A DNA stretch of 64,000 nucleotides. It comes from Desulfarculaceae bacterium (GTDB lineage Bacteria; Desulfobacterota; Desulfocorpusculales; Desulfocorpusculum). Position 1 is the first letter of the stretch, and each line of letters starts with the position of its first letter. The notes below the pieces were generated by a model that saw only the letters and a list, made by a program, of their open reading frames with translations, made no database searches and was not told the origin of the DNA. Where the stretch lies: NCBI GenBank assembly GCA_037443445.1, contig JBBIOJ010000003.1:11816-75815 (forward strand), written 5' to 3'. Both the position numbers and the translations under genes were made by a program. Below are positions 15,081-52,102 of this stretch, piece by piece.

Positions 15081-15656
15081 TTAGTTTATCAGCCTGTACG
15101 GCTGGGCTCTCTTGGCCCATTCGCTGCTCGGCCACTTCCTCTGGAGCTCCTCATAGGCCTCCCTGAGATGTTTTGGCTCGTGGGTATGCTTGTAAAGGGC
15201 CACCCCCTTCAGGAACATGGCCTCAGCAGCCGCGTCACTGCCGGGATGATGCTCCAGGATGCCCTCAAGGGCCGAGACGGCCTCCTGGAAGCGTCCGGCA
15301 TCAAAATGCACCTTGGCTATGCCCAGCCAGCCCGAGGGCACAAACTCCTCCGGGGGTAGAAAGCCTACTGTCCTGTGGTGCTCCTTCCCATCGGTGTCCA
15401 GGGTAACCAGGGTAGGAGTCCACTGCAGATTGAAGTCCCTGGCAAGGGGTTGGGTGTCGAAGCTAACCCTCAGCCCCACGAAATTCTGGTTTACGAAATC
15501 TCTGACAGTTTCCTTGGGATACGTGACCGCATCCATCTGCTGACAGCCAATTCAACCGGGGTTGAAAAAATCCAGGAGCACGGGCTTTTTCTCCTGCCTG
15601 GCCCTCTGAAGGGCCCTTTCCCAACTGGTTTCCCAGAGGATGCTCTCGCTGGCCAT
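15081..15656 (-). CDS. Thioredoxin-fold protein with UxxC redox motif, putative selenoprotein (in-frame TGA Sec codon at 15552-15554), with C-terminal TPR-like region
   Basis: Two same-frame ORFs (15552..15827 and 15081..15536) are separated only by a TGA. Read-through gives ...KPVLLDFFNPG-U-IGCQQMDAVTYP..., i.e. the stop sits exactly where the first Cys of a thioredoxin CxxC would be. Strong SD (AAGGAGGG) 5 nt upstream of ATG at 15656 (MASESILWETSW...). A 7-bp stem/GUCA-loop hairpin begins 17 nt downstream of the UGA. Confidence 0.75.
15517..15534 (-). promoter_or_regulatory. Putative bacterial SECIS-like hairpin (GGAUGCG-GUCA-CGUAUCC) downstream of in-frame UGA
   Basis: Perfect 7-bp stem (one G-U pair) with a GUCA apical loop. 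Starts 17 nt 3' of the UGA, which places the apical loop about 24 nt from the UGA. Consistent with the spacing and loop G/U features of bacterial SECIS elements. Confidence 0.5.
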
Positions 15657-16061
15657 GGTTTCCCTCCTTACAAGAAAGCTCCTGTCCGACTCCTCCATTG
15701 AGGCCCAGAACACCCGGGACTCAAGCCCCTCATACTCTTTAAGGATACTTTCAATATAACCCTGCCCCAACCCTCGCAAAGCAAAAAAACGTGTTCTGCT
15801 TTGACACCCTTGTGCTGCTTTGGGCATATGAGGCTCTCAGCCTGAACCATTAAGCCCTCAAGAGAAAGCCGGCCCAAATAGAACTACCTCAGTATGGAGT
15901 CCCTGCTCCTATCATTCAATACAAAACCTCGAAATCAGGCTTATCCATCCAAGAAAGGCACAAGCAGGCCCAGGCTCCCCCTTCTTGGGGGTCCCCAGGG
16001 GTCCTGGCTCCAATTCTTTGCCACCTTTCCCATTGCTCCAGAACAATACGGGGCAGAGGGC

Positions 16062-17549
16062 TCAGGAGCCGAATTCTCTGGCCCGCACAGGTCCACTGGT
16101 GACAACGTACAGCAACCGGGAAGACTCGTTGAGGCCAAGCAAGGAGGCTGCCTCTTGATCATAGAAGGCCCCCACTGCACAAGCCCCCAACCCAAGGGCC
16201 GTGGATGCGAGGTAGATCCTCTGGCCCATGCGGCCCGAAAGTATCAAGGCATGTCTGTACGCCCTGGCCCCCAGCCGGGATTCAAGGAGTTCCAGATTGC
16301 TAAGGAAGATAACCTGCAAGGCAGCCTGGCCCATCCAGTCTTGGTTCAGGCAGGCATAGGCCATCTTTCGGGAGAAATCCCCACGGGCCACCTCCCTTAG
16401 GGTCCGCTCTTGCATGTCTAGGAGATAGAACCCCCCGGGCATCTGCTCCACTTCCCTCAAGAGAAATCCAACAGCCAGAAGTTGATCCCATTCCTGGGAG
16501 GGGAAGTCCTGCTGTGGCTTCAGGCACTCCAACAGGCAGTGAAAGCTGTGTCTGTCCATGGGCCTAGGCAGGTAGGCCCGTCTGGACCTTCGCTGAAAAA
16601 GGGAGTCCACATATCCCATCTCATGTTGCCCAGGCGTGGGTGCTCCCCCAGGATGAGCAGGGCCCAATTCAAGCCCCAGCTCCTCCAGCATCCTCAACAC
16701 TGGGCCTTCCCCCCAGCGCATGGGACGGCAACCGGCTATGTGGGCTTCCAGAATGGTGGGGTAAATGGTCTCCTTGGGGGCCGGAGGCTCAGGTTTGGGA
16801 ATAGGGTAGGGGGATCCAAAGAGAGCCTCGGCAAGGGGAGAAGCCCCACTCCCCAAATCACCTGCTTCCACTATTGCCAAACAGGCCTCCTGTGTTGAGC
16901 CCAAACCCAAAAAAGAGTTCACTTTTTCATCTTGGAAATCCAGCAGAGTCCTGTGTGGGGTGCAGGTGGCCCTAAGGGCCAGGAGCAGGTTTTCCAGGAC
17001 ATAGCCTGAGTCCAAAAGCAGGTAGCGGTAGGCCCTCTCCCGATATTTCCAGGAGCTTCTAAAGAAGATGACGCTTACAAAGAAAGTCAAACTGCATGCG
17101 TCGGCAGCTCCCCAGGGCTCAAGGGGCCTTAACCTTACCAGGGAGTGCTCCTCCAGGTTGTAATGATACAGAGCCGCCGGGAGCCCGTTTATCCCCGAGG
17201 CTGCCAAATAAATCTCGCAAGGGTAAAGAGCGCCTGCCGAGGGTGTGCTTCTATAGAAGAAATCCCCTCCAGGATGTGAGCTTTTGGCAGTTATGGCACA
17301 GGTGAGCCTCAAAATTCCGGAGAGCTTCTTGAGGTCCCAGGCCTGAGAGCATTTAAAAGCGCAAGGGTCTCTCATGAGCTCCAGCATGCCCACGGAGGGA
17401 AATTCCAGCTCAATGGGAAGGGGCACCCTGGGCGCATTGAGATAGCGCTTGTACACTGTTGGCTGGTTGGACCACTCCAGGTACCCTCCTGACATGGCAT
17501 CCCGTTGGTAGGAGGTGATTTCATGATAGCGCTTCAGGGACTGGAGCAT
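16062..17549 (-). CDS. SagB/ThcOx-family dehydrogenase (tandem nitroreductase-like domains)
   Basis: 495 aa with two nitroreductase-fold halves and the glycine-rich C-terminal region typical of SagB-type dehydrogenase-domain proteins. No YcaO/cyclodehydratase gene nearby. Confidence 0.6.
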   Translation of the reverse strand: MLQSLKRYHEITSYQRDAMSGGYLEWSNQPTVYKRYLNAPRVPLPIELEFPSVGMLELMRDPCAFKCSQAWDLKKLSGILRLTCAITAKSSHPGGDFFYRSTPSAGALYPCEIYLAASGINGLPAALYHYNLEEHSLVRLRPLEPWGAADACSLTFFVSVIFFRSSWKYRERAYRYLLLDSGYVLENLLLALRATCTPHRTLLDFQDEKVNSFLGLGSTQEACLAIVEAGDLGSGASPLAEALFGSPYPIPKPEPPAPKETIYPTILEAHIAGCRPMRWGEGPVLRMLEELGLELGPAHPGGAPTPGQHEMGYVDSLFQRRSRRAYLPRPMDRHSFHCLLECLKPQQDFPSQEWDQLLAVGFLLREVEQMPGGFYLLDMQERTLREVARGDFSRKMAYACLNQDWMGQAALQVIFLSNLELLESRLGARAYRHALILSGRMGQRIYLASTALGLGACAVGAFYDQEAASLLGLNESSRLLYVVTSGPVRAREFGS

Positions 17550-17817
17550 GTTTAGGCTCTCCTTGACAAAAGCCGACCTGCGCCCTTTGATTCATCATGA
17601 CCGGTTTTGAAAGGAGTCGCAAGCCAGCCCTTGTTTCAAAAAAAGACTGGCCCTGATTTTTCTCCAAAGCCCGCAACTTTGGGGACTAGGGCCCCCAAGC
17701 TTTCCATAGGCTTAGACATATTCCGACTCGAAGCAGGCCCAAATCTGGAATCGAAAATCAGGATACATTTAAGTGTGGAGCGGCTTGCCCAAACATGTCA
17801 TTAAGATAGCCGGCATT

Positions 17818-17878
17818 ATTGTCCCACTCGGGGAATGGGAGAAAAACCATCGCCTTCAGGCAAAGACTTTGGTCCCCG
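17818..17878 (+). repeat. Copy A of a conserved ~60-nt element (ATTGTCCCACTCGGGgaATGGGAGAAaAACC...CTTTGG) in the carB 5' leader
   Basis: About 80% identical to copy B at 21152-21210. Contains the inverted repeat TCCCA-N9-TGGGA and an ATGGGAGAA(A/G)AACC mini-ORF start. Confidence 0.6.
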
Positions 17879-17914
17879 CTCAGGGAGTCAGCAATTCATG
17901 TGGGGGGCTTTGCC

Positions 17915-20900
17915 ATGCCGAAGCGCACCGATATCAGCAACGTCATGATCATAGGTTCCGGGCCCATAGTGATAGGCCAGGCATGCGAGTTCGACTATTC
18001 CGGAACACAGGCTTGTAAAGCCTTGAGGAGACTGGGATATAGGATAGTACTTGTGAATTCCAATCCTGCCACGATCATGACGGATCCGGGAATGGCCGAC
18101 ATTACTTACGTGGAACCTCTCACCCCGGAAGCCTTAGAACAAATCATTCAAAAAGAGAAACCCGATGCCATACTGCCCAATTTGGGAGGGCAGACAGGAT
18201 TGAACCTGACATCCGAGCTTCACAGAAGAGGGGTTTTGGAAAAGTACGGGGTCAAGGTCATAGGCGTTGCCGTGGATGCAATAGAAAGAGGGGAGGACAG
18301 GATAGCATTCAAACAGACAATGGCGCGTCTCAATATAGATGTACCCAGGAGCGAGCCTGCCTACACGATTGAAGAAGCGCTTCGAATAGCGGAAAAGTTG
18401 GGCTATCCGGTGGTTGTTCGCCCGGCTTACTGTTTGGGTGGAACAGGGGGGGGGCTTGGTTTACAACGTAGAGGAACTGAAGGTCGTGGCAGCCAGAGGT
18501 CTAAGTGCCAGCATGGTAGGGCAGATTCTGGTAGAGGAGTCCGTTGAGGGCTGGGAGGAGCTGGAGCTGGAAGTTGTGAGAGACGCCAAGAATCAGATGA
18601 TCACCGTCTGCTTCATAGAGAACGTGGATGCCATGGGAGTGCATACTGGCGACTCCTTTTGCGTGGCACCCATGCTAACCATAGATCCTGAGCTGCAACA
18701 AAGACTCCAGAAGCACTCCTACAATATCGTGGAGGCCATCAAGGTCATTGGGGGAACAAATATCCAGTTCGCCCACGACCCCAAGACAGGACGGCTGGTG
18801 GTAATAGAGATAAACCCCAGAACCTCAAGGTCTTCCGCCTTGGCCTCCAAGGCCACGGGTTTTCCCATCGCTTTCGTATCTTCCCTATTGGCGGCTGGAC
18901 TCACCCTTGACGAAATTCCCTATTGGAGAGAAGGCACCCTGGATAAGTACACCCCCTGCGGGGATTACGTGGTGGTGAAATTCGCCAGATGGGCTTTCGA
19001 GAAGTTCAAGGATGCTCATGACAGGCTTGGGACTCAGATGCGGGCGGTAGGGGAGGTCATGAGCATAGGGAAGAATTACAAAGAGGCCCTTCAAAAGGCC
19101 ATCCGCTCCCTGGAGATAGGCCGGCACGGGCTTGGCTTTGCAAAGGATTTCCACCTCCGAGGTCTGGAAGAACTAATGGACATGCTCTCTGAGCCAACCA
19201 GTGAGAGGCAGTTCCTGATGTACGAGGCCCTCAGAAAAGGTGCCTCGGTAGAAGCGCTTTACAGAAAAACTTACATCAAGCCTTGGTTTATAGAGCAGAT
19301 GAAGGAACTGGTGGAGTTGGAGGAAATGCTCCTTAAGTTCAAAGGGAAGGAGGTTCCTGATGAACTCCTGAGACGGGCCAAGAAAGATGGTTTTTCTGAC
19401 AAGTACCTATCTAAGTTGCTAGGGACTCCCGAGTTGGAGATACGCGAAAAAAGGAAGGCCGTTGGGGTTGTTCAAGGTTACGAAGCAGTGCCTGTAAGCG
19501 GGGTGGAGAAGGGAGCTTACTATTTTCCCACCTATAACGCCCCCGATGCGGTCCCGGTCAGCTCCAGACCCAAGGTGATGGTCTTGGGCGGAGGCCCCAA
19601 CCGAATAGGTCAGGGGATAGAGTTCGACTATTGTTGCGTGCACGCAGCCTTCGCCCTTAAAGACGAGGGGTACGAAGCCATCATGGTGAACTGTAATCCC
19701 GAGACCGTCTCCACCGACTACGACACCTCGGACCGCCTGTACTTTGAGCCTCTTACAGGAGAGGACGTTCTAGGTGTTTACGAAAAGGAGAAACCTCAAG
19801 GGGTCATAGTACAGTTCGGGGGGCAGACTCCCCTTAACATTGCAAGAGAGCTAGCCGAGCAGGGAGTCCGAATATTGGGCACTTCCTACGAGTCCATAGA
19901 TTTGGCTGAGGACAGGGACCGGTTCAGGCAAATGATGAGCAGACTGGGCATACCACAGCCCGCCTCGGGCATGGCCAGTTCTATGAGTGAAGCCCTGGAA
20001 GTGGCAAACAAAATAGGTTACCCCCTCATGGTCCGCCCATCCTATGTTTTGGGAGGCCGGGGCATGGAAGTTGTCCATGACCGCGCAATGTTGGAAACAT
20101 ACGTTGCAGAGACTGTGGGTGTCACACCCGAACGTCCCATTCTGATAGACAGGTTCTTGGAGGATGCCATCGAGGCGGAGGCCGATGCCATATCAGACGG
20201 AAAGGAGGCCTTCGTGCCTGCTGTGATGGAGCATATAGAGTTGGCCGGGATTCATTCCGGGGACTCTGCCTGCGTTATACCCCCGGTGAGCATTCCTCCA
20301 AAGCACATGGAGACGATCCAAGAATATACCCGCCGCATAGCCGTAGAACTAAATGTGGTGGGCCTCATGAACATACAGTACGCCATATACCGAGACACGG
20401 TTTTCGTGCTGGAGGCCAATCCCCGAGCTTCCAGAACAGTGCCTCTGGTGTCAAAGGTTTGCGGCATCCCCATGGCAAGACTAGCCACCAACGTGATGAT
20501 GGGGAAACGTATCTCGGAGTTCCCCCTCCAGCTCCCCAGAATAGCTCACTACGGGGTTAAGGAATCGGTTTTCCCTTTCAACATGTTTCCGGAGGTGGAT
20601 CCGGTGCTGGGCCCGGAGATGCGCTCCACGGGAGAAGTGTTGGGCTTGGCCGAGTCTTTTGGCCTAGCCTTTTACAAGTCCCAGGAGGCGGCCCAGCAAC
20701 GGTTGCCTCTCAAAGGCACAGTGCTCATCACCGTGTCGCCTCAGGACAGGCCCGCAGTGCTGGAGGTGGCCAGGCGTTTCCAGGACCTGAACTTTCGCAT
20801 CCTGGCCACCCAGGGCACTCAGAGTTTCTTGGCCGAGCACTCCATCAAAGCCGAGCGAATCCTGAAGATGCACGAGGGAAGGCCTAACATAATAGATGGG

Positions 20901-21119
20901 ATAAAGAATGGAGATATTCAACTGGTCATAAACACCCCTAGTGGGAAGCTGAGCTCCTATGACGACTCCTACATTCGAAAGGCAGCTATCCGCTATAGAG
21001 TGCCCTACATTACGACTCTGGCGGCTGCCATGGCGGCGGCAAAAGGAATCGAGGCCTGTCTGGAGAAGAATTGGTCTGTGAGATCTCTCCAAAGCTTTCA
21101 TCGTGGGGAAGAGGCTTAG
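17915..21119 (+). CDS. carB: Carbamoyl-phosphate synthase large subunit CarB, reading frame interrupted by a +1 frameshift in a G9 homopolymer (18446-18454)
   Basis: N-terminal part ([30 protein letters not shown]...[15 protein letters not shown]) is in the 17819 frame. The remainder ([11 protein letters not shown]... to ...FHRGEEA) is in the 18414 frame. The two join cleanly if one G of the G9 run is removed. Combined length is about 1068 aa, typical for CarB. Confidence 0.85.
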
Positions 21120-21151
21120 TCCCTAGGGCACATAAGAGACTAGCCTACTTC

Positions 21152-21210
21152 ATTGTCCCACTCGGGCCATGGGAGAAGAACCTTTGCCTTGAAAAGAAGG
21201 CTTTGGCCCG
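21152..21210 (+). repeat. Copy B of the same conserved element immediately downstream of carB
   Basis: ATTGTCCCACTCGGGccATGGGAGAAgAACCtttGCCTTgaaaagaaggCTTTGGcccg aligns with copy A. Confidence 0.6.
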
Positions 21211-21374
21211 CATTATCCATTGAGCGTCAATGATTCAGCCTGGCTTTGGAGTCTGGGCAGGTTGTGAGCTTTCCAACATGAAGGGGCTTGCCGAATTCTC
21301 AGGGCCAGCATATTGTGAAGTCATATTCAATGACTCACCTTTTGTGAGTAGTTCTGGCCAAGAGGAGACAGATA

Positions 21375-21722
21375 TTGGACGGGTCATCCCGTTTCCCGGC
21401 TCGCGGATCGGCATATCAGGGGGATGATTGGGTTTCTCCTGAGTTCTTGAAAAGGGAAAGACAGCGCGCCAGAGAGCTTCGCCAGAGTGCATGGTGGAAA
21501 CGAAAGCTGGCCAAAGGTGATTGTTATTACTGCCGCAGAAGATTCCCACCCGGGGAGCTCACCATGGATCATCTGGTGCCGCTGGTCAGGGGGGGAAGGA
21601 GCACCAAGAGCAATTGCGTGCCTTGTTGCAAGGAGTGCAATACAAAGAAGAACACCCTTCTCCCGCTGGAGTGGGAGGAATATCTGCACCGGCTTCAAGA
21701 GGAAGGGGAAAGGGTCCTATGA
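21375..21722 (+). CDS. HNH endonuclease-family small protein
   Basis: Motif CYYCRRRF...MDHLVPLVRGGRSTKSNCVPCCKECNTKK (Cys4 plus His-Asn-His). The tracked ORF starts at TTG; the true start is uncertain and may be the downstream TTG at EFLKRER. Confidence 0.65.
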   Translation: MDGSSRFPARGSAYQGDDWVSPEFLKRERQRARELRQSAWWKRKLAKGDCYYCRRRFPPGELTMDHLVPLVRGGRSTKSNCVPCCKECNTKKNTLLPLEWEEYLHRLQEEGERVL

Positions 21723-26442: not shown

Positions 26443-27306
26443 TCATGCTTGGAGGGTGGGCCTGGCCCACCTCTTCCTGAAATCGAACCACAGGTCGAAA
26501 AGCCCTAAGGCTGCAACTGCCAAGAGCAATACCTGCTGGAAAAAAACAAAGGCGTAAACCACGCCCCTCAGAAAAGGGGGCACTCCCCTCTGTCTGAACA
26601 GATTGGAAAGCACTGCCACGCCCTGCAATAGATGCACAGAACCCATGAACAGCACAAGATTCATCCCCACGGCCCCGGAGATCTCCACGGGCACCAGAAG
26701 CAGCAGCCCACCCAGGATGGTAACCCAGACCCAGTGGTAAGGAATCCCCCATTCATCCAGCCTCTCGGGCCCGGGCCTGTCTGCAGCCCAAATCAGTGAA
26801 AACCTCCTGCAAACCAGCAAAGTCCACCATTGAAGAAGCAAGTTCGTGGAAGCGAAGATTCCAGGCAACAGGACCACCAGCAACCTGGAGATGCGGGAAA
26901 TCCCCTCCTGCATCCTGCCCATTTCTTCCCTGCCCACGGCTCCCTGAGCATACAGCTCGAATACCTGTCTGAAGGCTGTCTCCACGCTCTGAGTCAAGAG
27001 GCTCCAAGGGGTTTCTGCCCGCTGCAGGGACCAGATCCCCAGGAGGGAGATCTGCAAGACTAGAGAAACCAACACAGCGCTCCCCATGGCCCTGTTGAGG
27101 GTCCAGGAACGCCTCATGACCTCTCCCAAGACAAGCCCTTGGGCTGCCCACTGGCCTGACCACAGGGCGCCCCCAACACCTGCCTGGGACATTGTGTTGG
27201 TCAAGACCAATCCCAGGCCCAAGACCCCAAGCCCTCGGAGCCGTCCCAGGTGGGTGTACAGGAAGGCTCCCAAGACCGGGAGAAAAGGGAACATCAACAT
27301 TCGCAA
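26443..27306 (-). CDS. DUF2232-family integral membrane protein (YybS-like)
   Basis: Polytopic membrane protein located between rpsR and rplI, the conserved position of DUF2232 genes. Confidence 0.6.
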   Translation of the reverse strand: MRMLMFPFLPVLGAFLYTHLGRLRGLGVLGLGLVLTNTMSQAGVGGALWSGQWAAQGLVLGEVMRRSWTLNRAMGSAVLVSLVLQISLLGIWSLQRAETPWSLLTQSVETAFRQVFELYAQGAVGREEMGRMQEGISRISRLLVVLLPGIFASTNLLLQWWTLLVCRRFSLIWAADRPGPERLDEWGIPYHWVWVTILGGLLLLVPVEISGAVGMNLVLFMGSVHLLQGVAVLSNLFRQRGVPPFLRGVVYAFVFFQQVLLLAVAALGLFDLWFDFRKRWARPTLQA

Positions 27307-27444
27307 AGGCAGAGGAGCCCAGCCAAAGGCAAAAAAAAACCTGTGCTGATCCCCAGGGCAAGACCCAACATACCCCCTCCGGGGGAAACCGGCCAGGCCT
27401 CTGGCTTGTTCTCCTGCTCTGCCATGAAACCTTCCCCCCAGCGC

Positions 27445-27687
27445 TCAAAGCACAAGAGTTGTGTAAGGCATCAGGGCCAGGTGCCTGGCTCTCTTTATGG
27501 CCTGGGTTAGAGCCCGCTGATGTTTTGCGCAGTTCCCGCTTATGCGGCGCGGCACTATCTTGCCCCTCTCTGTGGTGAAGAACCTTAGCGTCTTGATGTC
27601 CTTGTAATCGATCAACAGGGACTTGTCCGCACAGAAACGGCATACCTTCCTGCGACCGAACCCCCTCCTTCCTTTAGGAGCTGGCAT
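27445..27687 (-). CDS. rpsR: 30S ribosomal protein S18
   Basis: [60 protein letters not shown]. Start placed at MPAPKGRR. Confidence 0.9.
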
Positions 27688-30822: not shown

Positions 30823-31305
30823 TCAGAAGGTTCCTGGCGGTGAGCCAGGCCTGCAATCCTTCAGGTTGAGGACCTTGTCCAGAATTCCGTTAATGAAGGC
30901 CGGCGAGTCCGCAGAGCCAAATCTCTTGCCCAACTCAATGGCCTCGTTGATGCTTACTCGCACAGGGATTTCAGGGCAGAAGAGAAGCTCATAGATGGCC
31001 AGTCTGAGGATGTTTCTGTCCACCGTGGTCATCCTGTCCACCCTCCAGTTCTGGGCCATTTTCATGAGCACTTGATCTATTTCATCTAGGTGTTTCCTGA
31101 CCCCTTGGACCAGCTCCGAGGCGAACTTTCTTGACTCCTGGGAGGGGGCTCCCCCCTCGGGATCTGAGACGGCCTCCTGTCCCGGTTCCCCCAGGCTCAG
31201 CAGCTTTAAGACCGAGCATAGACTGCTGTCCGTTTCCTCATGGGTCAGGTCTGCCCTGTACAGGACCTTCAACGCCAGTTCCCTCGCTCTTCTCCTGGAT
31301 CCCAT
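30823..31305 (-). CDS. nusB: Transcription antitermination factor NusB
   Basis: ARELALKVLYRADL...RMTTVDRNILRLAIYELLF...INGILDKV. Confidence 0.85.
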   Translation of the reverse strand: MGSRRRARELALKVLYRADLTHEETDSSLCSVLKLLSLGEPGQEAVSDPEGGAPSQESRKFASELVQGVRKHLDEIDQVLMKMAQNWRVDRMTTVDRNILRLAIYELLFCPEIPVRVSINEAIELGKRFGSADSPAFINGILDKVLNLKDCRPGSPPGTF

Positions 31306-31479
31306 GAGTTATCTCCACCCCTCGCCCGCCTCCCCAAGGCTTGAAGAACCTATGCGCTTTTCAAGAACTCTTTTTCCATCAAGACAATCAGTACGGCCAG
31401 AGGGCATGCCCAGCTCATGGGAAGGAGATCCCCTTAACATGCTGCCCAATTCACTGCCCGAGACATAGAGCCCTCAGGC

Positions 31480-31956
31480 TCAAGAGCTTTCAGCCAGAGC
31501 CCGGCGAAGCTGAACCAGTTCCATGGCAGCCATGGCCGCGTCCCAGCCCTTGTTCCCGGCTTTTGAGCCGGCCCTCTCTATGGCCTGCTCGAGGGTGTCG
31601 GTGGTGAGAACTCCAAACACCACCGGCACCGGGGCCTCCATGGAGACCTGTGCCACACCTTTAGAGACCTCTGCGGCTATGTACTCGAAATGAGGCGTGC
31701 TGCCCCTTATAACCGCCCCCAAGCATATGACCGCGTCGAAGTGACCGCTGTGGGCTGCCCAGCGGGCCACTGCAGGGATCTCGAAAGCTCCGGGCACCCT
31801 GATGACGTGCACATCCTGATCCAGGGCTCCGTGCCGGACCAGAGCGTCCACAGCCCCCTCCAGCAGCCTCCCACAGACAAATTCGTTGAAACGGCTTGCG
31901 ACTATGGCTATCCTGAGGCCCTCCGCACTTATCTTTCCTTCATGAACTATCGGCAT
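31480..31956 (-). CDS. ribH: 6,7-dimethyl-8-ribityllumazine synthase
   Basis: [22 protein letters not shown]...[11 protein letters not shown]. Confidence 0.9.
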
Positions 31957-32097
31957 TTGCGGCCCTCCAAAGCTCCCAATGAAACCGGTTTTCTCCTCTG
32001 GGAAGTTTTCTGGTCATGGGTTGCTTGACTCGAGCGGCTTCTCACACCAGCCCATGCGCCCAGCCCTTGAACCATCCCCCATTCTCAAGACCTTGCC

Positions 32098-33303
32098 TCA
32101 CTTGAGCTTCAACATATGACCCATCTTGTCCCGCTTTGTCATCAGGTACTTGAGGTTCCTCTGGTTGGGTTTCACCTCCAGAGGAACCCTTTCAACTATC
32201 TCCAGCCCGTAGCCCGCCAAGGCCACATACTTGGTGGGGTTGTTGGTCATGAGGCGCATGCGCCTTATGCCCAGATCCATCAGTATCTGGGCGCCAACCC
32301 CATAGTCCCTCTGGTCCACCGGAAGTCCCAATTCCAAATTGGCCTCCACCGTATCCTTGCCTTGGTCTTGAAGCACGTAAGCCCTAAGCTTGTTGCAAAG
32401 CCCTATTCCCCTGCCTTCCTGCCTCATGTACACCAAAGCTCCCCTGCCTTCCTGCTGGATCATTCGCATGGCAGTGTGAAGTTGCTCTCCGCAGTCACAC
32501 CTCTGGGAGTGCAGCACGTCCCCGGTAATACACTCGGAATGCACCCTTACCAGGACAGGCTCCTGAGGCTCCCAGTTCCCAAGGACCAGGGCCAAGTGTT
32601 CATTGGGATCCACATCGTTCTCGTACGCTATTGCCTTGAACTCGCCGGCGATAGCCGTGGGCAGCACTGTCTCGGCAACTCGCCGCACCAACCTCTCGTG
32701 TTGGAGTCTGTAATTTATCAAATCTGCTATGGTGACTATCTTGAGTCCGTGCTCTTGGGCGAAGATCTCCAGATCTGGCCTGCGGGCCATGGTGCCGTCC
32801 TCGTTCATAATCTCGCATATGACACCCATGGGTTTCAAACCGGCCAGCCTGGCCAGATCCACCGACCCCTCTGTCTGGCCCGTGCGAGCCAGGACACCTC
32901 CAGGCTTGGCAATGAGGGGAAAGACGTGCCCTGGCCTCGCTATGTCCTGGGGAGTGGTTCGATCATCCGCGAGGGTTTGGACGGTAATTGCCCTGTCATA
33001 GGCGGATATGCCCGTGGTGATCCCCTTTTTTGCATCCACCGAGACAGTAAAAGCTGTTCTGAAAGGGCTGGTGTTGTCCTGGACCATGGGAGGAAGGTTC
33101 AGCTTGGCTGCCCTTTCCTCAGTCATGGACACGCAGATGAGCCCTCTTCCGAACTTTGCCATGAAATTGACATGCTCGGGGGTGACCTTCTCGGCCGCCA
33201 TGGTCAAATCCCCTTCGTTCTCCCTGTCCTCGTCGTCCACCAGGATCACCATGCGCCCTTCCCGGATCTCCTTGATGGCCTCCTCGATAGTGGCAAACGA
33301 CAT
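32098..33303 (-). CDS. ribBA: Bifunctional 3,4-dihydroxy-2-butanone-4-phosphate synthase / GTP cyclohydrolase II
   Basis: N-terminal DHBP synthase ([12 protein letters not shown]) and C-terminal GTP cyclohydrolase II ([19 protein letters not shown]). 401 aa. Confidence 0.9.
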
Positions 33304-33389
33304 GAAAACCTCCTTAAATCAAAGCCCTAGTCACTTAACGCCTGGGTTCTCTACACCCCGGATCCCACCTCAGGGATCTGAAGCAGGCC

Positions 33390-34052
33390 TCAGGGAAGGT
33401 AGCCGTGTTCTTTCAAGAGTTCTTCGGTCACTTTGCCACGGCCTGCCTGGGGAAGGCTGCGGGTGCGGCTCTCCAGAAGCTTCTCCACGTACTTCCCCAG
33501 GATGTCGCATTCTATGTTTAGCCTTGCCCCAACACCCTTCATGGCCAGGGCTGTTCGGCTGATGGTGTGGGCAATGAGAGCCAGGCCGAACCAGTCTGAT
33601 CCGCAGCGGTTTATGGTCAGACTGATACCATCCACAGCCACCGAGCCCTTCTCAACCAGATAGCGGCCCAGTCCACCAGGCACTCCTATCTCCAACTCCA
33701 GATACCTGGTGGCAGTCTGTCTTCTCTTGAGTATTCCCACCCCGTCCACGTGCCCCGTGACCAGATGACCTCCCAAGCGGTCCGAGACCCTCAGCGCACG
33801 CTCCAAGTTCACGGGCCGTCCCGGTTCCGCTTCCCCCAGAGTGGTTCGCTCCAGGGTTTCTGGAGAAACTTCCACCTGGAATTCTTCTGGGCCAAAGGAA
33901 ACCACGGTGAGGCAGACTCCGTCCACAGCCACACTCTCCCCCAGTTGGGGATTCTCCTCCAGAAGCCGACTTTGGATGGTGAGTCGCAGGAGCTCCCCGC
34001 GGCGCTCCAGCCTTCTTACAAGTCCAACGTCCTGGATCAAGCCGGTGAACAC
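33390..34052 (-). CDS. ribE: Riboflavin synthase alpha subunit
   Basis: MFTGLIQDVG...VAVDGVCLTVV with two lumazine-binding repeats. 220 aa. Confidence 0.85.
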   Translation of the reverse strand: MFTGLIQDVGLVRRLERRGELLRLTIQSRLLEENPQLGESVAVDGVCLTVVSFGPEEFQVEVSPETLERTTLGEAEPGRPVNLERALRVSDRLGGHLVTGHVDGVGILKRRQTATRYLELEIGVPGGLGRYLVEKGSVAVDGISLTINRCGSDWFGLALIAHTISRTALAMKGVGARLNIECDILGKYVEKLLESRTRSLPQAGRGKVTEELLKEHGYLP

Positions 34053-34075
34053 TTCAGCCTCCCAGGGAAAAGAGC

Positions 34076-34558
34076 TCAGGATGGTTTTCTCTCCTTGTCC
34101 TGGCTCTGGCTGGCGGCCAGCAATTCCCTAACTTCCTCTATGAACTGGGTGATATCCTTGAACTGTCTGTACACAGAGGCGAACCGGACATAGGCCACGT
34201 CATCCAAGCGATAAAGGGCCCTCATGACCATCTCCCCGATGGCTGAACTGTGGATCTCCTTTTCCCCCATCTCCTGGAAATGACGCTCTATCCCAGAGGT
34301 CACCTCCTCGAGAACCTCCACGCTTATGGGTCTCTTCTCACAGGCTTTCTTGAGCCCTGCCATGATCTTGTTTCGATCAAAGACCTCCCTGGAACCGTCT
34401 TTTTTTATGACCAGGGGCAGAATCTCCTCCACCCTCTCGTATGTGGTAAAACGACGCTGGCAACTCAAACACTCCCTTCTTCTTCGAATCACGTCCCCTT
34501 CCCTGGACAAACGGGAATCTATGACCCTGTTGTCTAGGCTCTTGCAGAAGGGACACTT
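34076..34558 (-). CDS. nrdR: Transcriptional repressor NrdR
   Basis: MKCPFC...C...C zinc ribbon plus ATP-cone. Start placed at MKCPFCKS. Confidence 0.85.
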
Positions 34559-34562
34559 CATG

Positions 34563-35006
34563 CTATCCTCCCAGTCTCTCCACAGAGATACCGCTGCAGG
34601 AAAGCATTTCAGCCGAAAGCTGATCTGCATATCCTTCTTGGTAAACTATTCTCAAGATCCCCGCATTGATTATCATCTTAGTGCAAATTACACAGGGGTG
34701 GGTGGTGGAATAGATGGTGGCCCCCTTGATTCCAACCCCATGGTTGGCGGCCTGGATTATGGCGTTCTGTTCCGCATGCAGCCCCCTGCACAACTCGTGA
34801 CGTTCCCCCGAGGGGATTCCCCTAAGCTCCCTGAGACAACCCACCTCCTCGCAGTGGGGCAGGCCACTGGGAGGGCCATTGTAACCCGTTGCGAGAATCT
34901 GCCTGTCCCTCACGAGCACGGCTCCCACTTGCCGTCTGAGGCAGGTAGACCTCCTGGAGACCAGCCGGGTGATCTCCATGAAGTACTCGTCCCAGCTAAG
35001 CCTCAT
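34563..35006 (-). CDS. dCMP deaminase / cytidine-deoxycytidylate deaminase family (ComEB-like)
   Basis: HAEQNAI and PCVICTKMI zinc-binding motifs. Start at MRLSWDEYF overlapping the glyA stop (ATGA). No ribD reductase domain is present. Confidence 0.75.
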
Positions 35007-36292
35007 GGCGCGGCCTTGGCCTGCCCTGAACCCCGGGTTCTGTACTGCCCGAGCCTGGCCGGATACACCGGGAATCGGCTGCACAGCTCCCTCACTTGAG
35101 TGCGGACTTCGGCTATGGTCTTCTCGTCCTGCGGGGTCTGAAGCACCCTGTGGATAAGTTTGGCTATGAGTCGCATCTGGGCCAGCCCCATTCCTCTGGT
35201 GGTTACCGCAGGGGTGCCTATCCTTATGCCGCTTGTTACCTGCACGCTCAGTGGATCAAAAGGGATTGCATTCTTATTTACTGTTATGCCGGCCCTGTCC
35301 AGGGCCTCCTCAGCCTCTGCCCCCGTGATCTTTTGCCCTGTAAGGTCCACGCAGAAAAGATGGTTGTCCGTCCCGCCCGAAACTATGGAATAGCCCATTT
35401 CCATGAGGCTTTGGGCAAGGCACCTGGAGTTGGAGACCACCTTTTGCTGATAGATCCTAAACTCCTCCTGGAGTGCTTCCTTAAAGGCCACGGCCTTGGC
35501 CGCGATCACGTGCATGAGTGGTCCTCCCTGAATACCAGGGAAGACTGCTGAGTCTATGGCTTGAGCATACCGGGACTTGCATAGTATCAACCCACCCCTG
35601 GGGCCCCTGAGGGTCTTGTGGGTCGTGGCCGTGACAAAATCAGCGTGGGGTACCGGGCTTGGGTGAAGTCCAGAGGCCACCAGTCCGGCTATGTGGGCCA
35701 TGTCCACCATGAGGTACGCTCCCACTTCCCCCGCTATGTCTGCAAAGGCCTCGAAATCTATGATGCGGCTATAGGAGCTTGCGCCGGCCACTATCATTCG
35801 GGGCCTGGTGGCCAGGGCTATCTGGCGGATCTCCCCATAGTCCAGCATCTGATTGTCAGGTCTTACCCCGTAAGATACCGCATGGTAGAGCCTTCCCGAG
35901 AAACTGGCTTGAGCCCCGTGGGTCAGATGCCCTCCATGGGCCAAGCGCATTCCCAAAATCCTGTCGCCAGGCTTCAGGGTAGCCAAGTAAACGGCCATGT
36001 TGGCAGCGGAGCCCGTCACAGGCTGCACATTGGCGTGCTCAGCCCCGAAGAGCTCCATTGCCCTGTGCACCGCCAGCCTTTCCACCCTGTCCACGTGCTG
36101 ACAGCCCCCGTAGTACCTCTTGCCAGGGTAGCCCTCGGCATACTTGTTGGTCATCACCCCGCCCTGGGCCTCCAGGACCGCCTCGCTGGCATAATTCTCC
36201 GAGGCTATGAGCACCAAGCGATTCTCCTGGCGTTCCAGCTCGTCTTGAAGAGCCTGGGCTACTTCAGGATCCACTTCCATAAGCCTGGACAA
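35003..36292 (-). CDS. glyA: Serine hydroxymethyltransferase
   Basis: [36 protein letters not shown] and the [15 protein letters not shown] site. 429 aa. Confidence 0.9.
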
Positions 36293-36295
36293 TAC

Positions 36296-36766
36296 TCAAA
36301 CCCCTCCCCCTTGATCAGGGATCTTCTTTTCAAGTTCCTTTATCTGGGCCAGACGGAGCTCGTGCCTCCCTCCTTCAAAAGGAGTCTCCAGCCAGAGCTT
36401 CACTATCTCTTTGGCCAGGCCCTTTCCCAAGACCCTTCCTCCCAGGGCCAAGCAGTTGGCATCATTGTGCTTTCTGCTCATTATCGCAGTGTAGAGGTCA
36501 TGGCAAAGGGCTGCCCTTACCCCAGGAAAGCGGTTTGCCACTATGGACATACCTATGCCGGTCCCGCAGATCAAGATTCCCCGGTCTGCCTGCCCGCCCA
36601 GAAGTTGGCGGGCTACCAGAGCGGCAAAACTCGGATAGTGTACAGACTCTTCCCCTTGGGTTCCCAGGTCCTGTACCTGATGGCCCATTTCCTCCAGAAA
36701 CCTCTTGAGCTCCTCCTTGAGCTCAAAGCCCCCGTGGTCGGCCCCTATGGCTATTCGGTATCTCAT
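36296..36766 (-). CDS. rpiB: Ribose-5-phosphate isomerase B
   Basis: [20 protein letters not shown]...[14 protein letters not shown]. Confidence 0.85.
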
Positions 36767-40921: not shown

Positions 40922-43273
40922 ATGCCAGGCCCTGTCCCTTGTTGCCCAAAGCCCCCCCCCGGTGCTTCCCTGGGGCCTCTCCTCCAGTTAAGACAACCAG
41001 CCTTGCTTCTCCTGGACCCCACCTTCAAGGTGATGGCTGCCAACGCGGGAGCTTCGCTGCTAAGCGGCTTCCAGCCAGCTGAGCTCATGGGCCTGGATTT
41101 CCTGTGCTTGTTCGAACCCTCTGAAAGGGAAAAAATACAAGAATGCATTGGCTCCGCTCCCCATGAAAAACAACTAGAGGTGCAGCTCCTGGCAGCCCAC
41201 GGCAGGTGTATTCCTGTGGGGATTTCCTGTGCAGCCGATGCAGGACAGGTCTGGGTGGCCCTTTGGGATCTTCAGCCCATGTTGGATTTGAGGAAGCTAG
41301 CCGATGAAGCCCGAGACAGAGCAGAGCGGATTTCCAACATGGGGGATATTGGGATCATAGTTTACGACCAGGATTTCCACATAGAGTTCGCCAACCAAAT
41401 GGCAGGGGAGATTCTGGGATGTCCGGCCCGGGAGCTGCTGGGAAAGGAAATAACGAGCTTCTTGGGCAAAGTGCAAAGCCTTCAACTGAGAAACTACCAC
41501 TCGGCTTTCCTCATGGAGCAGCAAACAAAGCTCAGGGCAGAGCTGCCTGTGGAGAGGCCTGACGGCACGCGCAAGCTGGTGGAAATATGCCTGTCCATGA
41601 CCAAAAACGAGCGCCGTGCCTCGCGCACCTATGCGTACATGAGGGACCTCACAGAGCGTGTAGAGATGGAAAACGAGCTCCGAAAGGCGAATCAGTTCTT
41701 GCAGAACGTGATCAGGAGCTCGGTGGATGGCATAATCGCTGCCGATATGAAAGGAAACATAATCATTTTCAACGAGGGGGCAGAGAGACTCCTGGGTTAC
41801 AGGGCAGAAGAGGTCATAGGAAAGATCCACATCACTCAGCTCTACCCGCCGGGTGTGGCCAAGAAGATCATGCGGCGGCTTCGTAGCGAGACTTACGGGC
41901 CCAAGGGGAAGCTGCCCACCACCCCCACCACCATCGTGGCCAAATCAGGGGAGCACATACCCGTGAGGATCTCCGCAGCCATCGTATACGAAGGCGAACG
42001 GGAGATAGCTTCAGTGGGCATCTTCAGGGACTTGAGGGAGCGCATCAAGATGCAGCAGCAGCTGGAGGAGACATACCGGCAGTTGCTGCACTCAGAGAAG
42101 CTGGCTTCCCTGGGAAAGCTGGCGGCTGGGGTGGCCCACGAGCTGAACAATCCCCTGGGAGGCATTCTCATGTACGCCAACATCCTGCTGGAACAGTCCG
42201 GCCAAGGACCCATGACCCATGACCTCAGGGAGATAGTGGAACAGGCCCTGAGATGCAAGGAGATAGTGCGGGGATTGCTGGATTTTGCCCGAAGGCGAGG
42301 GGAGGAGCTGGCCAGGGTTCAGCTCAACGAGGTGTTGGAGAAGTGCGTGGGGTTGATGAGCAAACAGGGCACCTTCCTGAACATCCAATGGGAAAAGCAG
42401 CTCCAATCAGATCTCCCCCAGGTGGCGGGGGAGCCGGACCAGTTGAGTCAGGTTTTCACCAATCTCATAGTGAATGCTGCGGATGCCATGGAAGGGAAAG
42501 GAACCCTGGGGATCAGAACCTGGGCCGAGGGGGAGCCCCCGCAGGTCCACGTGGAAATATCAGATACTGGGAGCGGCATTCCAGAGGAACACCTGCAGAG
42601 GGTCTTCGACCCTTTTTTCACCACAAAGGAGGTGGGCAAGGGCACGGGCTTGGGGTTGAGCATCGCATACGGGATTGTGCGGAGAATGGGCGGGGACATC
42701 CAGGTCAAGAGCAAGCTGGGCCAAGGCACAACTTTTCACCTGCGCTTTCCTCTGGAGCCTCCGGCTCAGCTTCCAGGGGAGGCCCAGGAGGGCTTGGCAG
42801 GTATTCGGGACAAGGAAGGAAGAGCGGTACAGGTGGTTCTGGCAGGGGAAAAGGGGCTCATGAGGCTCTTGTCTTTTTACGACTCCTTCGAACCCAAGGG
42901 GGCCTTCGAGGGACTCCCTCCCCCTCTCAAGAGGGAGAGGCGCAAATGGGTCATCGGGCTGATGGGCGGGTGGCGCAACTTCCTCCTACTGGACGGCGAG
43001 AGGGTGATAGGCCACGTGGGGGTGACCCTGGGGGAGTCGGATCTGGAGGAGGTAATCATCTTTCTGCACCAAAATTACAGGGGAAAAGGAATCGGTACCC
43101 TGGCTCTCAAGCACATAGGAGAACTCATGGCCCGGGAGGGCTGTACCAGGCTCTGGCTCACAGTGGAGTCCACCAACACGTCTGCCATCCGCTGTTTCCA
43201 AAAAGCGGGATTTCATTTCACATCCAGGGAGCTTGAGCCCCAAATGGAGATGGTGATGGATCTGGAAGGCTGA
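40922..43273 (+). CDS. PAS-domain sensor histidine kinase with C-terminal GNAT N-acetyltransferase domain (HK-GNAT fusion)
   Basis: Multiple PAS regions, HisKA (HELNNPLGGI), HATPase_c (GTGLGLSIAYGIVRRMGG), then ~150 aa with GNAT motif A/B (NYRGKGIGTLALKHIGELMAREGCTRLWLTVESTNTSAIRCFQKAGF). No receiver domain or adjacent response regulator. Start uncertain. Confidence 0.75.
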   Translation: MPGPVPCCPKPPPGASLGPLLQLRQPALLLLDPTFKVMAANAGASLLSGFQPAELMGLDFLCLFEPSEREKIQECIGSAPHEKQLEVQLLAAHGRCIPVGISCAADAGQVWVALWDLQPMLDLRKLADEARDRAERISNMGDIGIIVYDQDFHIEFANQMAGEILGCPARELLGKEITSFLGKVQSLQLRNYHSAFLMEQQTKLRAELPVERPDGTRKLVEICLSMTKNERRASRTYAYMRDLTERVEMENELRKANQFLQNVIRSSVDGIIAADMKGNIIIFNEGAERLLGYRAEEVIGKIHITQLYPPGVAKKIMRRLRSETYGPKGKLPTTPTTIVAKSGEHIPVRISAAIVYEGEREIASVGIFRDLRERIKMQQQLEETYRQLLHSEKLASLGKLAAGVAHELNNPLGGILMYANILLEQSGQGPMTHDLREIVEQALRCKEIVRGLLDFARRRGEELARVQLNEVLEKCVGLMSKQGTFLNIQWEKQLQSDLPQVAGEPDQLSQVFTNLIVNAADAMEGKGTLGIRTWAEGEPPQVHVEISDTGSGIPEEHLQRVFDPFFTTKEVGKGTGLGLSIAYGIVRRMGGDIQVKSKLGQGTTFHLRFPLEPPAQLPGEAQEGLAGIRDKEGRAVQVVLAGEKGLMRLLSFYDSFEPKGAFEGLPPPLKRERRKWVIGLMGGWRNFLLLDGERVIGHVGVTLGESDLEEVIIFLHQNYRGKGIGTLALKHIGELMAREGCTRLWLTVESTNTSAIRCFQKAGFHFTSRELEPQMEMVMDLEG

Positions 43274-43443: not shown

Positions 43444-44571
43444 GTGCAACAGCAAGCGGTTCGTGTTGTGAAAACCTATAGCATAGTCGTCCTGCCTGGG
43501 GATGGAATAGGACCTGAAATCGTAGAGGCTGCCTTGGAGGTCCTGGACACTCTTCAAGAAGTTCTAGGGGAATTTAGGCTTTCCTATCAGATTCATAGAG
43601 CCGGGGCCAGCCTTTATCAGGAGACGGGGGTGCCCATCGGAAAAGAGGCCATTGAGGCCTTTCGGGACTGCCGCGTTGCTCTCAAAGGCCCGGTCGGGCT
43701 CCCCACGGTTCGTAAGCCTGATGGTACCGAGGCGGGGCTTCTGGGGGGAATCCTGAGATGCGGATTCGATCTCTACGCCAATGTGAGACCCATCTGCCTT
43801 CTTCCCAAGGTGCCCGGCCCATTGGCCGGTATCACCCCCGAAGGGCTGGATTACGTGATCGTAAGGGAGAACACAGAAGGTCTGTACCTCTCCCGGGGGC
43901 TGGGATTGGTGACACCGCAGGCAGCAACGGACACCATGCTTATGACCGCCGTGGGGTGTGAAAGAATAGCCCGATTCGCCTTCCGTACGGCCTTGATGAA
44001 GAGGCGGGGGGCTCCAGAGGACGGCAAGAAAAGAGTCACACTCGTTGACAAGAGCAATGTTCTTAGATCTTTCGCCTTTTTCAGGAAGATCTACTTGAAA
44101 ATAGCCGAGGAGTTCCCAGAGGTGGAAGCGGAGTGCATGTACGTGGATGCGGCCTGCGCAGCACTGGTTAGTCGCCCGGGCCATTTCCAGGTGATCGTGA
44201 CCGAGAATCTCTTCGGAGATATACTTAGCGACCTCGGGGGGGCAACGGTGGGAGGGCTTGGCTTTTGTCCCTCTGGGAATATAGGGGAGACCCACGCATA
44301 CTTCGAACCAATCCATGGCTCGGCCCCGGACATAGCGGGCCGCGGGCTCGCAAACCCAACGGCCCAGATTCTTTCGGCCGCCATGATGCTGGATTACTTG
44401 GGAGAGCAGCGTGCGGCCGAGATGTTGCGCAATGCAGTTAGGAGGGTCTGGGCCGAAGCTCCACTGAGGCTGGAGGCAGGAGGGTGGGTCATAGGAGGAG
44501 CGCAGAGCGTGACCAGGGCAATAAGAGAGATGCTCCTTGCGGCCGAAGAGGGCGCCCATGAGATCCGCTGA
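43444..44571 (+). CDS. Isocitrate/isopropylmalate dehydrogenase-family protein (tartrate/D-malate or NAD-isocitrate dehydrogenase-like)
   Basis: SIVVLPGDGIGPEIVEAALEVLD N-terminus and conserved family blocks. 375 aa. Substrate not assignable from sequence. Confidence 0.7.
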   Translation: MQQQAVRVVKTYSIVVLPGDGIGPEIVEAALEVLDTLQEVLGEFRLSYQIHRAGASLYQETGVPIGKEAIEAFRDCRVALKGPVGLPTVRKPDGTEAGLLGGILRCGFDLYANVRPICLLPKVPGPLAGITPEGLDYVIVRENTEGLYLSRGLGLVTPQAATDTMLMTAVGCERIARFAFRTALMKRRGAPEDGKKRVTLVDKSNVLRSFAFFRKIYLKIAEEFPEVEAECMYVDAACAALVSRPGHFQVIVTENLFGDILSDLGGATVGGLGFCPSGNIGETHAYFEPIHGSAPDIAGRGLANPTAQILSAAMMLDYLGEQRAAEMLRNAVRRVWAEAPLRLEAGGWVIGGAQSVTRAIREMLLAAEEGAHEIR

Positions 44572-47066: not shown

Positions 47067-47222
47067 CTGCTGGGATTTCAGCAGCAAGGCAAAGGGTACC
47101 GTACGGTACCAAGGCTTTTGAGATCCACTGAGGGTTGCTTTGAAACGGACAGCTTGGGTGGGTCTGATCCGACTCAAGGGAACAATAAACAGACCTGATC
47201 ACGCTTAGGATGGGATGGAAAC

Positions 47223-49157: not shown

Positions 49158-49187
49158 GAAAAGGGGAGAACCCCCATTGGAGAAACC

Positions 49188-50402: not shown

Positions 50403-50555
50403 AAGGGGTGGGTCAGCTCAACCTGCGGGGCCACAGAGGGTTGACATGGGCACTGGGTTTTTCCCATACTCCCCGGCGGGGAATCCCGGGGCTGCAAGGG
50501 CAAAAAGGAAAGTCTTTGAGGGCGGCCGGAGCCTGGTTAGGCCTGGCCACACCGA

Positions 50556-51539: not shown

Positions 51540-51580
51540 GCTCGCACAAGAGCTGTCTCGGGCCCCAAGCGTTTCTCAGA

Positions 51581-52087
51581 ATGAAAAGAAAAGAAACCGT
51601 TTTCTTCGGGGTCTGTCTGGCCTTTTTCGGCTTCATGTTGTATGAGGCCTTGGGGCAGATAGGCCGTGGCCGGGCAGGCGAAGTGGGAAGCGGATTCTGG
51701 CCGCTTCTGACCCTAAGTGGTTGTGCCCTGCTAAGCGGGGTGCGCTTCATCTACTGCCTCAGGCGGGAGGGCCGCGAAAGCTCGAGCCTCCCAAGGGAGG
51801 AAGAGCAAGCCTCAGAAAGGCCTCAGGTGAGGCAAAATGCGGTCCTTTTCACCATGGCCTCCTTCCTGGCCTATCTTATCGCCATCCCATGGATCGGCTT
51901 CATATTGGCCACCCTTCTGTTCGTCCCTGCTGTGAGCGTTTCCCTAGGCGAGAGGCGCTGGGGGGTGCTGGCAGTCTCACCTTTTGTGCTGACCGCCGTC
52001 ATAGTGGCGGTGTTCGCCAAGTTCATCACCATACCTTTCCCCAGGGGGGCGGGGCTGTTTGCCGACTTCAGCAGGCTTTTCTATTGA
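51581..52087 (+). CDS. tctB: Tripartite tricarboxylate transporter small membrane subunit TctB
   Basis: 4-TM small protein between tctC and tctA. 168 aa. Confidence 0.7.
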   Translation: MKRKETVFFGVCLAFFGFMLYEALGQIGRGRAGEVGSGFWPLLTLSGCALLSGVRFIYCLRREGRESSSLPREEEQASERPQVRQNAVLFTMASFLAYLIAIPWIGFILATLLFVPAVSVSLGERRWGVLAVSPFVLTAVIVAVFAKFITIPFPRGAGLFADFSRLFY

Positions 52088-52102
52088 GGGGAACTTTGAC
52101 CC

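Follow-up and report, generated by a model that had tools for sequence, protein, structure and literature searches.

Frame break at a guanine homopolymer in carB of a Desulfarculaceae bacterium, a probable case of recent gene loss

The window analysed here, i.e., the whole stretch of 64,000 nucleotides from a Desulfarculaceae bacterium (contig JBBIOJ010000003.1, positions 11,816 to 75,815), contains carB, a gene of de novo carbamoyl-phosphate synthesis. Direct reading of the window revealed nine consecutive G residues (G9) at 18446-18454, flanked by A and C, and the reading frame of carB is broken at this tract. The gene starts with ATG 17915, and the translation of its first part runs ...YCLGGTGGG through the tract, past which the zero frame continues for 31 wrong-frame codons to a premature TGA (18545-18547). 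The truncated N-terminal product comprises 210 amino acids. The remainder of the gene lies in the next frame after the tract and ends with a stop codon at 21117-21119, and both fragments are present as separate entries in the protein collection. Removal of one G restores a carB of 1067 codons, and thus a protein of 1067 amino acids. The features of the locus are listed in Table 1.

Table 1. Coordinates of the carB locus in the window.
Feature	Position	Strand	Evidence
Deletion junction, 35 nucleotides 5' of the carB ATG	17879..17880	+	Alignment to L088 and relatives
Retained carB leader with GGGGGG resembling a ribosome-binding site 7 nucleotides before the ATG	17880..17914	+	Conserved in all relatives
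carB N-terminal part, codons 1-177, original frame	17915..18445	+	Translation, Pfam, NCBIfam, tblastn
G9 homopolymer, one base above the in-frame G8	18446..18454	+	Sequence, relatives, 1BXR alignment
Out-of-frame tail of the N-terminal product, ending ...GVR	18455..18547	+	Translation
carB remainder, 888 codons and stop, open in the +1 frame	18455..21119	+	Translation, Pfam, NCBIfam, tblastn

Codons 1-177 of carB span the pre-ATP-grasp domain and the beginning of the first ATP-grasp domain, and the 888-codon part holds the rest of the latter, the oligomerisation domain, the second pre-ATP-grasp and ATP-grasp domains, and an MGS-like domain. The Pfam domains found in the two pieces (CPSase_L_D1 and CPSase_L_D2, twice each, CPSase_L_D3, and MGS) make up the full CarB architecture, with one CPSase_L_D2 match split over the break (1-57 and 52-210). 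The match to the NCBIfam equivalog NF003671 / TIGR01369 is likewise divided between the N-terminal fragment (1-184; 307 bits) and the C-terminal fragment (192-1056; 1177.6 bits, cut-off 599), while the closest intact homologue, P0001, scores 1523.9 bits on NF003671. When P0001 was used as a tblastn query, its residues 1-181 matched frame 2 (96% identical) and its residues 178-1067 matched frame 3 (97%); the two matches overlap exactly on the G tract, where the frame switch sits. Both the membership in NF003671 and the order of the domains identify the gene as a carB, and what it lacks is a single uninterrupted frame for full-length CarB, given the +1 shift at the tract and the stop codon that follows. 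The deposited sequence does contain the frame break, and its anatomy had been described correctly in an earlier, sequence-only reading of this DNA, which placed a +1 break at the G9 and found the two parts to join perfectly at G8. The causes proposed there, namely sequencing or assembly error, genuine mutation and phase variation, were the right ones to consider.

According to an alignment to 1BXR, the tract codes for the invariant Gly-Gly-Gly of the glycine-rich loop, which corresponds to G178-G180 of Escherichia coli CarB. Although it is the longest G run in the window, the presence of a G9 run is not unusual in itself, since two runs of nine G or nine C were observed versus 8.7 expected from dinucleotide shuffles. 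The non-random feature is the exact coincidence of the frame break with the tract, and not the length of the run.

The loci used for comparison were L001-L003 (one population in three data sets), L004, L086 (GCA_964414345.1), L087, and the more distant L092 (GCA_008362845.1), which were counted as five related lineages from independent data sets. In all five the gene is intact, at full length in four of them and in part in L092, where it ends at the contig edge, and the carB loci of all the relatives are syntenic with the window. At the tract site all five lineages read GGAGGGGGC (ACA GGA GGG GGC TTG), in frame. The window differs from them at this site by a synonymous A>G substitution giving G8 and by one added G, the latter being the sole insertion or deletion (indel) in the 3.2-kb coding sequence relative to L001 and L004. 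In 73 carB genes of other species, the G run at the motif usually comprises three residues and never exceeds seven. As in a recent unitary pseudogene, the frameshift thus falls in the first ATP-grasp domain of a gene that is intact at this site in the five lineages and in the 73 species.

The best CarB homologues in the databases are intact proteins of 1067-1073 amino acids that are 96-97% identical to the repaired protein, and those that are named come from metagenome-assembled genomes (MAGs) of Thermodesulfobacteriota or Syntrophaceae. Neither the best hits nor the two nearest clusters in a collection of 5.8 billion clusters contained an intact CarB with an identity above 97.7%. In a scan of contigs with CarB, the best of the matches listed was only 78% identical, and a pattern scan of metagenome contigs (exact flanks with 5-8 bases between them) returned only the sister-species contig Ga0209381_1000174. 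No in-frame G8 allele of the species itself was found in the collections searched. The carB of the sister species that encodes P0001 (JGI 3300007072, ENA ERZ27245800, Logan SRR7539636) is equal in length to that of the window and 97% identical to it at the amino acid level and 95% at the nucleotide level; the metagenome JGI 3300007072 originates from the Dewar Creek DC9 hot spring, 64.7 °C (PMC8098120). The neighbouring genes are also the same in the sister species and in the window, with a gene for a SagB-type dehydrogenase upstream on the opposite strand, and genes for an HNH protein and a class-IV aminotransferase, trxB, trx, and dnaB downstream. In contrast to the window, the sister species has GGAGGGGGC in frame and retains a TTGACA-18-TATACT block upstream of carB. 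Further intact CarB proteins of the sister-species type are P0002, P0123, and P0124 (in GCA_964414345.1). P0249, which was considered as a third broken carB, was rejected, as it proved to be an intact gene interrupted by a contig end.

With the SagB-type dehydrogenase encoded by the divergent neighbour as a query, a 98% match was found on a Logan contig of SRR24079451 (L088). Together with L089, which continues it, this contig is 97.7-98.3% identical to positions 10859-32817 of the window, whereas the identity of the sister species over those flanks is only about 80%; L088/L089 therefore represent a conspecific strain, obtained from independent data. In L088 the carB tract consists of seven G (G7), which puts the gene out of frame in the direction opposite to that of the window. 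The G7 sequence is reproduced with 100% identity in L091, a contig of a second run (SRR24079446), and the 9.2-kb conspecific contig was seen in two samples. The same gene carries two nonsense mutations, TAC>TAG and GAG>TAG, at the equivalents of window positions 18968 and 19314, respectively. In addition, a CGC>CCC missense mutation replaces Arg with Pro at the residue aligned with E. coli R169, in the RP motif; this Arg is invariant in the 73 carB genes, which were, however, collected with a motif search pattern that required it.

The roughly 20 genes around the conspecific carB are in order. Comparison of eight upstream genes of L088 with those of the window revealed 71 synonymous and 36 non-synonymous differences, no stop codon, and no frameshift, and the 13.1 kb downstream align to the window without gaps, with gene calls of expected lengths. 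In total, three disabling lesions are found in 3.2 kb of L088 carB versus none in about 16 kb of flanking coding sequence, and a rough calculation gives a probability of about 0.005 for random errors, which makes them an unlikely source of these lesions.

The window strain has a second lesion as well. At the junction 35 nucleotides 5' of the ATG it lacks 348 bp that are present in L088 and L091, and the segment is absent from the rest of the window too. There is no repeat flanking the deletion, which is therefore not a collapse by the assembler. The right-hand 174 nucleotides of the segment are conserved (83-85%) directly 5' of carB in all sister-species loci; of this block, just the last 82 nucleotides align in L092, which is more distant, and the promoter is present there. 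The block carries TTGACA and TATACT separated by 18 nucleotides, with 11 of the 12 consensus positions matched (scored in L088), and this element, which all six other genomes have kept, is found within a nearly invariant stretch of 45 nucleotides about 50 nucleotides before the ATG. No sigma-70-like site was detected in the window between 17500 and 18000. The consensus match and the conservation suggest that the lost block is the functional promoter of carB and, as the upstream gene is on the opposite strand, read-through would be unable to replace it. Thus, both strains carry extra, independent lesions of the kind that marks pseudogenes: the 348-bp deletion in the window, and G7, two TAG codons and the Arg>Pro replacement in L088.

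The left-hand 172 nucleotides of the 348-bp segment (L088 2022-2193, minus strand) are found in the conspecific Logan strain only and have no counterpart in the window. They are bracketed by the inverted repeat CCTAAGGCGC ... GCGCCCTTAGG and could represent a small inserted element or an uncharacterised RNA; when the conspecific locus was scanned with Rfam, none of the known RNAs matched within the 348-bp segment.

The sequence-only reading had ranked a homopolymer error as the likeliest cause of the break, that is, the true tract of the window would be G8, carB would be intact and functional, and the extra G would come from sequencing or consensus calling. In favour of this, the break is a matter of a single base in the window's longest G run, and the rest of the gene is perfect and subject to strong purifying selection. 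According to the literature, the predominant kind of error left in long-read MAGs is the homopolymer indel, which results in split gene calls (PMC9262707), and singleton frameshifts in conserved genes are usually ascribed to sequencing error (PMC3711429). An assembly prone to such errors would be expected to contain other homopolymer indels or split genes. However, a codon-usage frame scan revealed that carB is the sole same-strand frame switch in the 64 kb, and it is the only broken gene found beside about 55 others. All of the 19 neighbouring genes searched by tblastn with sister-species proteins are full-length and collinear with their L001 orthologues in single alignments, and the Pfam matches of about 50 open reading frames (ORFs) of the window are of normal extent, with the exception of one half-length transporter (MFS) ORF. 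A long alternative-frame ORF over rpsR (26753-27673) was dismissed as spurious, S18 being intact in another frame.

The homopolymers themselves point in the same direction. In total, 38 runs of at least 6 nucleotides were comparable between the window and L088/L089, of which 28 are identical, nine differ by substitution, and the carB tract alone differs by an indel; hence, 37/37 of the other runs are indel-free. These include G8 at 13746 and A9 at 27331, which are of the same length in both conspecific assemblies; the gene that hosts the former matches its L001 orthologue at full length, and runs of eight C or eight G at 5449 and 38416 sit inside Pfam domain matches. Given this record, the disablement of the same gene in the conspecific strain, with its G7, two stops and Arg>Pro amid intact neighbouring genes, and the loss of the 348-bp promoter block, which is unrelated to homopolymers, the earlier ranking is not supported, and a genuine mutation now has a higher probability than an error of sequencing or assembly alone. 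A miscall nevertheless keeps a small but appreciable probability, although it would have to coexist with the promoter deletion and with the disabled conspecific gene.

The pattern of substitutions indicates that the loss of the gene, if real, is very recent. Relative to L001, the ratio of non-synonymous to synonymous substitution rates (dN/dS) of carB is 0.07 on both sides of the shift (0.067 for the 888-codon part), and the changes of the window lineage relative to L001 and L004 comprise 77 synonymous and 19 non-synonymous ones, the replacements being all conservative. The differences between the two conspecific strains were polarised with four outgroups, which assigned 15 synonymous and eight non-synonymous changes to the terminal branch of the window (dN/dS about 0.16), and 10 synonymous and nine non-synonymous changes, including both stops, to that of L088/L089 (about 0.27). 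Relaxed constraint, with dN/dS approaching 1, was therefore not observed in carB (0.07-0.27). Over the whole gene, the window and L088/L089 differ by about 32 synonymous and 17 non-synonymous changes, while about 100 non-synonymous ones would be expected had the gene been dead since the split. The low dN/dS and this deficit indicate that the inactivations are recent and independent. An inactivation in the common ancestor by deletion of the A, giving G7, was rejected on the same grounds, i.e., about 32 synonymous changes versus just 17 non-synonymous ones.

The carB gene lies within a mosaic segment (16700..21620) that contains the N-terminal half of the SagB-type dehydrogenase gene, carB itself and most of the HNH gene. 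The identity of this segment to the sister species is 92-98%, versus 63-86% outside it, and the synonymous divergence (dS) of carB from L001 is 0.19, versus 0.44-1.37 for 12 neighbouring genes, whereas the sister-species strains are about 96% identical to one another, uniformly along the region. The segment looks like a recombinational import of about 5 kb that would be older than the split between the window strain and L088, and it is the context of carB, not a lesion. Directly 3' of carB is a free-standing gene for an HNH endonuclease of 115 amino acids (21375-21722, plus strand), located mostly inside the segment, which is kept downstream of carB in every relative with a long enough contig; its sole NCBIfam match is the HNH domain of Cas9d.

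Such an import, 95% identical to the sister species versus about 80% for the flanks, might suggest that this carB is a decaying duplicate or xenologue, with a second carB or a carbamate-kinase-type enzyme elsewhere in the genome, and the parallel decay in two strains does call for a cause of relaxed selection. However, the locus occupies the syntenic carB position of all the relatives, which looks like the replacement of an allele and not like an added copy, a tblastn search found no second carB in the 64-kb window, and the low dN/dS between the two strains shows that this copy was needed until recently. A redundant copy, the idea of which overlaps with the best explanation given below, is accordingly regarded as an improbable cause.

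The reading that is favoured here, with a probability of roughly 60%, is that the carB of this species is a very young pseudogene, in which a recent and genuine loss began at a slippery G8 tract peculiar to this lineage. The window strain and L088 would have inherited this tract from their common ancestor, where the synonymous replacement of GGA by GGG left GGAGGGGG as an uninterrupted G8, located in the codons of the invariant Gly-Gly-Gly loop in the first ATP-grasp domain. By slipped-strand mispairing, the tract would then have grown by one G in the window strain (G9) and shrunk by one in the L088 strain (G7), each indel truncating CarB within the first ATP-binding domain. Later damage would have been independent, the window losing the 348 bp with the promoter, and L088 gaining the two nonsense codons and the Arg>Pro replacement. 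A shared A>G followed by -1 and +1 indels at an in-frame, slippery G8 is the most economical path to the observed states. It implies that the G9 is present in the DNA and not just in the assembly, that G8 was the intermediate, and that the organism probably survives via cross-feeding or an alternative carbamoyl phosphate route.

Several points speak against recent loss. The G9 is known from an assembly consensus, and runs of eight or nine G are a classic site of residual consensus errors. The carB coding sequence is flawless besides the tract (888 open codons; 15 synonymous versus 8 non-synonymous lineage-specific changes, the replacements being all conservative) and in this respect resembles a functional gene with one miscall. 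The loss of CarB implies auxotrophy for arginine and pyrimidines, or an alternative enzyme. Furthermore, the promoter was assigned by consensus and conservation, and another promoter could exist, while the evidence from the conspecific strain rests on Logan contigs that were assembled automatically and belong to a single project.

The same tract lengths bear on reversible phase variation, in which the tract would toggle carB between ON (G8) and OFF (G7 or G9), and hence between prototrophy and a cheaper auxotrophy. A homopolymer of 7-9 G that lies 17% into the ORF and varies between strains is what phase-variable genes display (at least 7 nucleotides, in the 5' part); the two strains have G9 and G7 with every other run being stable in length, and the two OFF states are of independent origin. 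On the other hand, the ON allele was seen in no assembly of the species, so that alternating alleles were not observed, and the tract is not a maintained one, as it is absent from the five lineages and none of the 73 species has eight or more G at the site. Both strains also carry extra lesions that slippage could not undo, namely two stops and Arg>Pro in L088 and the lost promoter block in the window, and carB is a core anabolic enzyme gene, unlike the surface or restriction-modification genes that are typical contingency loci (PMC3711429). The phase variation that the sequence-only reading had left open thus finds little support, in view of the lack of a G8 allele, the non-conserved tract and the irreversible lesions, and it is considered very unlikely. 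A variant in which the G8 tract would act as a hypermutable switch, with populations repeatedly shedding and regaining CarB under cross-feeding and G7 and G9 being OFF variants, some of which decay irreversibly, is speculative and is likewise given a slim chance.

Recoding would leave the G9 real and still supply full-length CarB, through either +1 slippage of tRNA-Gly or RNA-polymerase slippage that drops one G. A tRNA-Gly on GGG might re-pair perfectly one base forward within the first six G, which would give exactly the wild-type GGTGGGLV, and spontaneous +1 slippage of this kind, at a low level, is plausible in mechanistic terms. In E. coli, the suppression of frameshifts without programming was measured at 1-10%, but for -1 events (PMC10861913). 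However, the shift is not conserved, all lineages outside the species being in frame, the shift site has neither a stop nor an obvious hungry codon, no RNA structure is predicted downstream (fold z-score +1.2), and the missing promoter argues against selection for expression. Neither a conserved shift nor stimulatory elements, as expected of programmed recoding, were therefore found at the tract. As for transcription, slippage insertions were observed transcriptome-wide only in A/T runs, G/C runs being 'not prone to slippage', and homopolymer deletions were rare (PMC5574713); a rescue of carB by transcriptional slippage was rejected on this evidence. Of all the explanations considered, recoding is the least probable.

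If the recent loss of carB is real, the species abandoned de novo carbamoyl-phosphate synthesis very recently, and two of its strains did so independently at one slippery tract. It would be a clean natural case of one synonymous change creating a mutational weak point in a core gene, and of auxotrophy arising in an uncultured bacterium whose examined regions otherwise show little sign of gene decay. Annotations should list this carB as a probable pseudogene and not silently repair it, and arginine and pyrimidine prototrophy should not be assumed in metabolic reconstruction of this MAG. Were the break an artefact, it would carry no biological weight.

Some other features of the window deserve mention. 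The only other run of nine G or C, C9 at 40952-40960 (plus strand), lies ten codons after the ATG of ORF 40922-43273, which encodes a PAS-PAS-histidine kinase-GNAT fusion of 783 amino acids; this run is apparently in frame and encodes PPP. The half-length transporter ORF, 203 amino acids long (54904-55515, minus strand), matches the first half of MFS_1 only (26-179 of 347), abuts the start of a prpF-like gene, and could be what is left of a truncated transporter. The interval from sfsA to the SagB-type dehydrogenase gene (15081-15827, minus strand) contains a TPR/thioredoxin-like gene of 151 amino acids and an ORF of 91 amino acids. Both are present in the window and L088 and neither in L001, while L004 has the 151-amino-acid gene and just an ORF of 34 amino acids at the adjacent position; this difference is a small indel polymorphism among close relatives.

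The region 43444-54818 contains two genes of the isocitrate/isopropylmalate dehydrogenase family, an FAD oxidoreductase gene, an aconitase-family gene, genes for the tripartite tricarboxylate transporter TctCBA, and a PrpF-family gene, which suggests an island for tricarboxylate uptake and catabolism. A housekeeping gene order, rpiB, glyA, a dCMP-deaminase-like gene, nrdR, ribE, ribBA, ribH, and nusB, is found at 30823-36766 (minus strand), and no ribD reductase domain was detected at this locus.

Among known systems, the protein itself is best compared to E. coli CarB (PDB 1BXR, 1JDB, 1C30 and others), which has the same order of domains and aligns closely to the region around the break (E-value, 3.5e-106 over 224 residues). 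Its loop reads GGSGGG, and the G tract of the window covers the residues aligned with G178-G180 of it. Unlike E. coli CarB, the carB of the window is broken in frame after codon 180 and has lost the conserved upstream promoter block, and E. coli and the 73 other species code the glycine loop with interrupted G runs.

With regard to the process, the poly-G/C contingency loci of Campylobacter, Neisseria, and Haemophilus resemble the carB of the window in having an early tract of G7-G9, where length differences between strains switch the frame. They differ from it in that the window carB has no observed ON allele, its tract is not conserved, its lesions are irreversible, and it is a housekeeping biosynthetic gene. 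Other parallels are bacterial pseudogenes and frameshifted genes due to homopolymer slippage, such as those with frameshifts in poly(A) tracts in Buchnera and Blochmannia, in which a one-base indel in a homopolymer of at least 8 nucleotides is also the first lesion of an otherwise conserved gene and recurs at the tract in related lineages. Unlike these, the window has a G tract in a genome of 57% G+C, with intact neighbours apart from the half-length transporter ORF; moreover, a rescue by transcriptional slippage, proposed for the poly(A) tracts of the Buchnera/Blochmannia type, is not expected for G runs (PMC5574713). The break in carB is thus an instance of a well-known process and not a new type of system.

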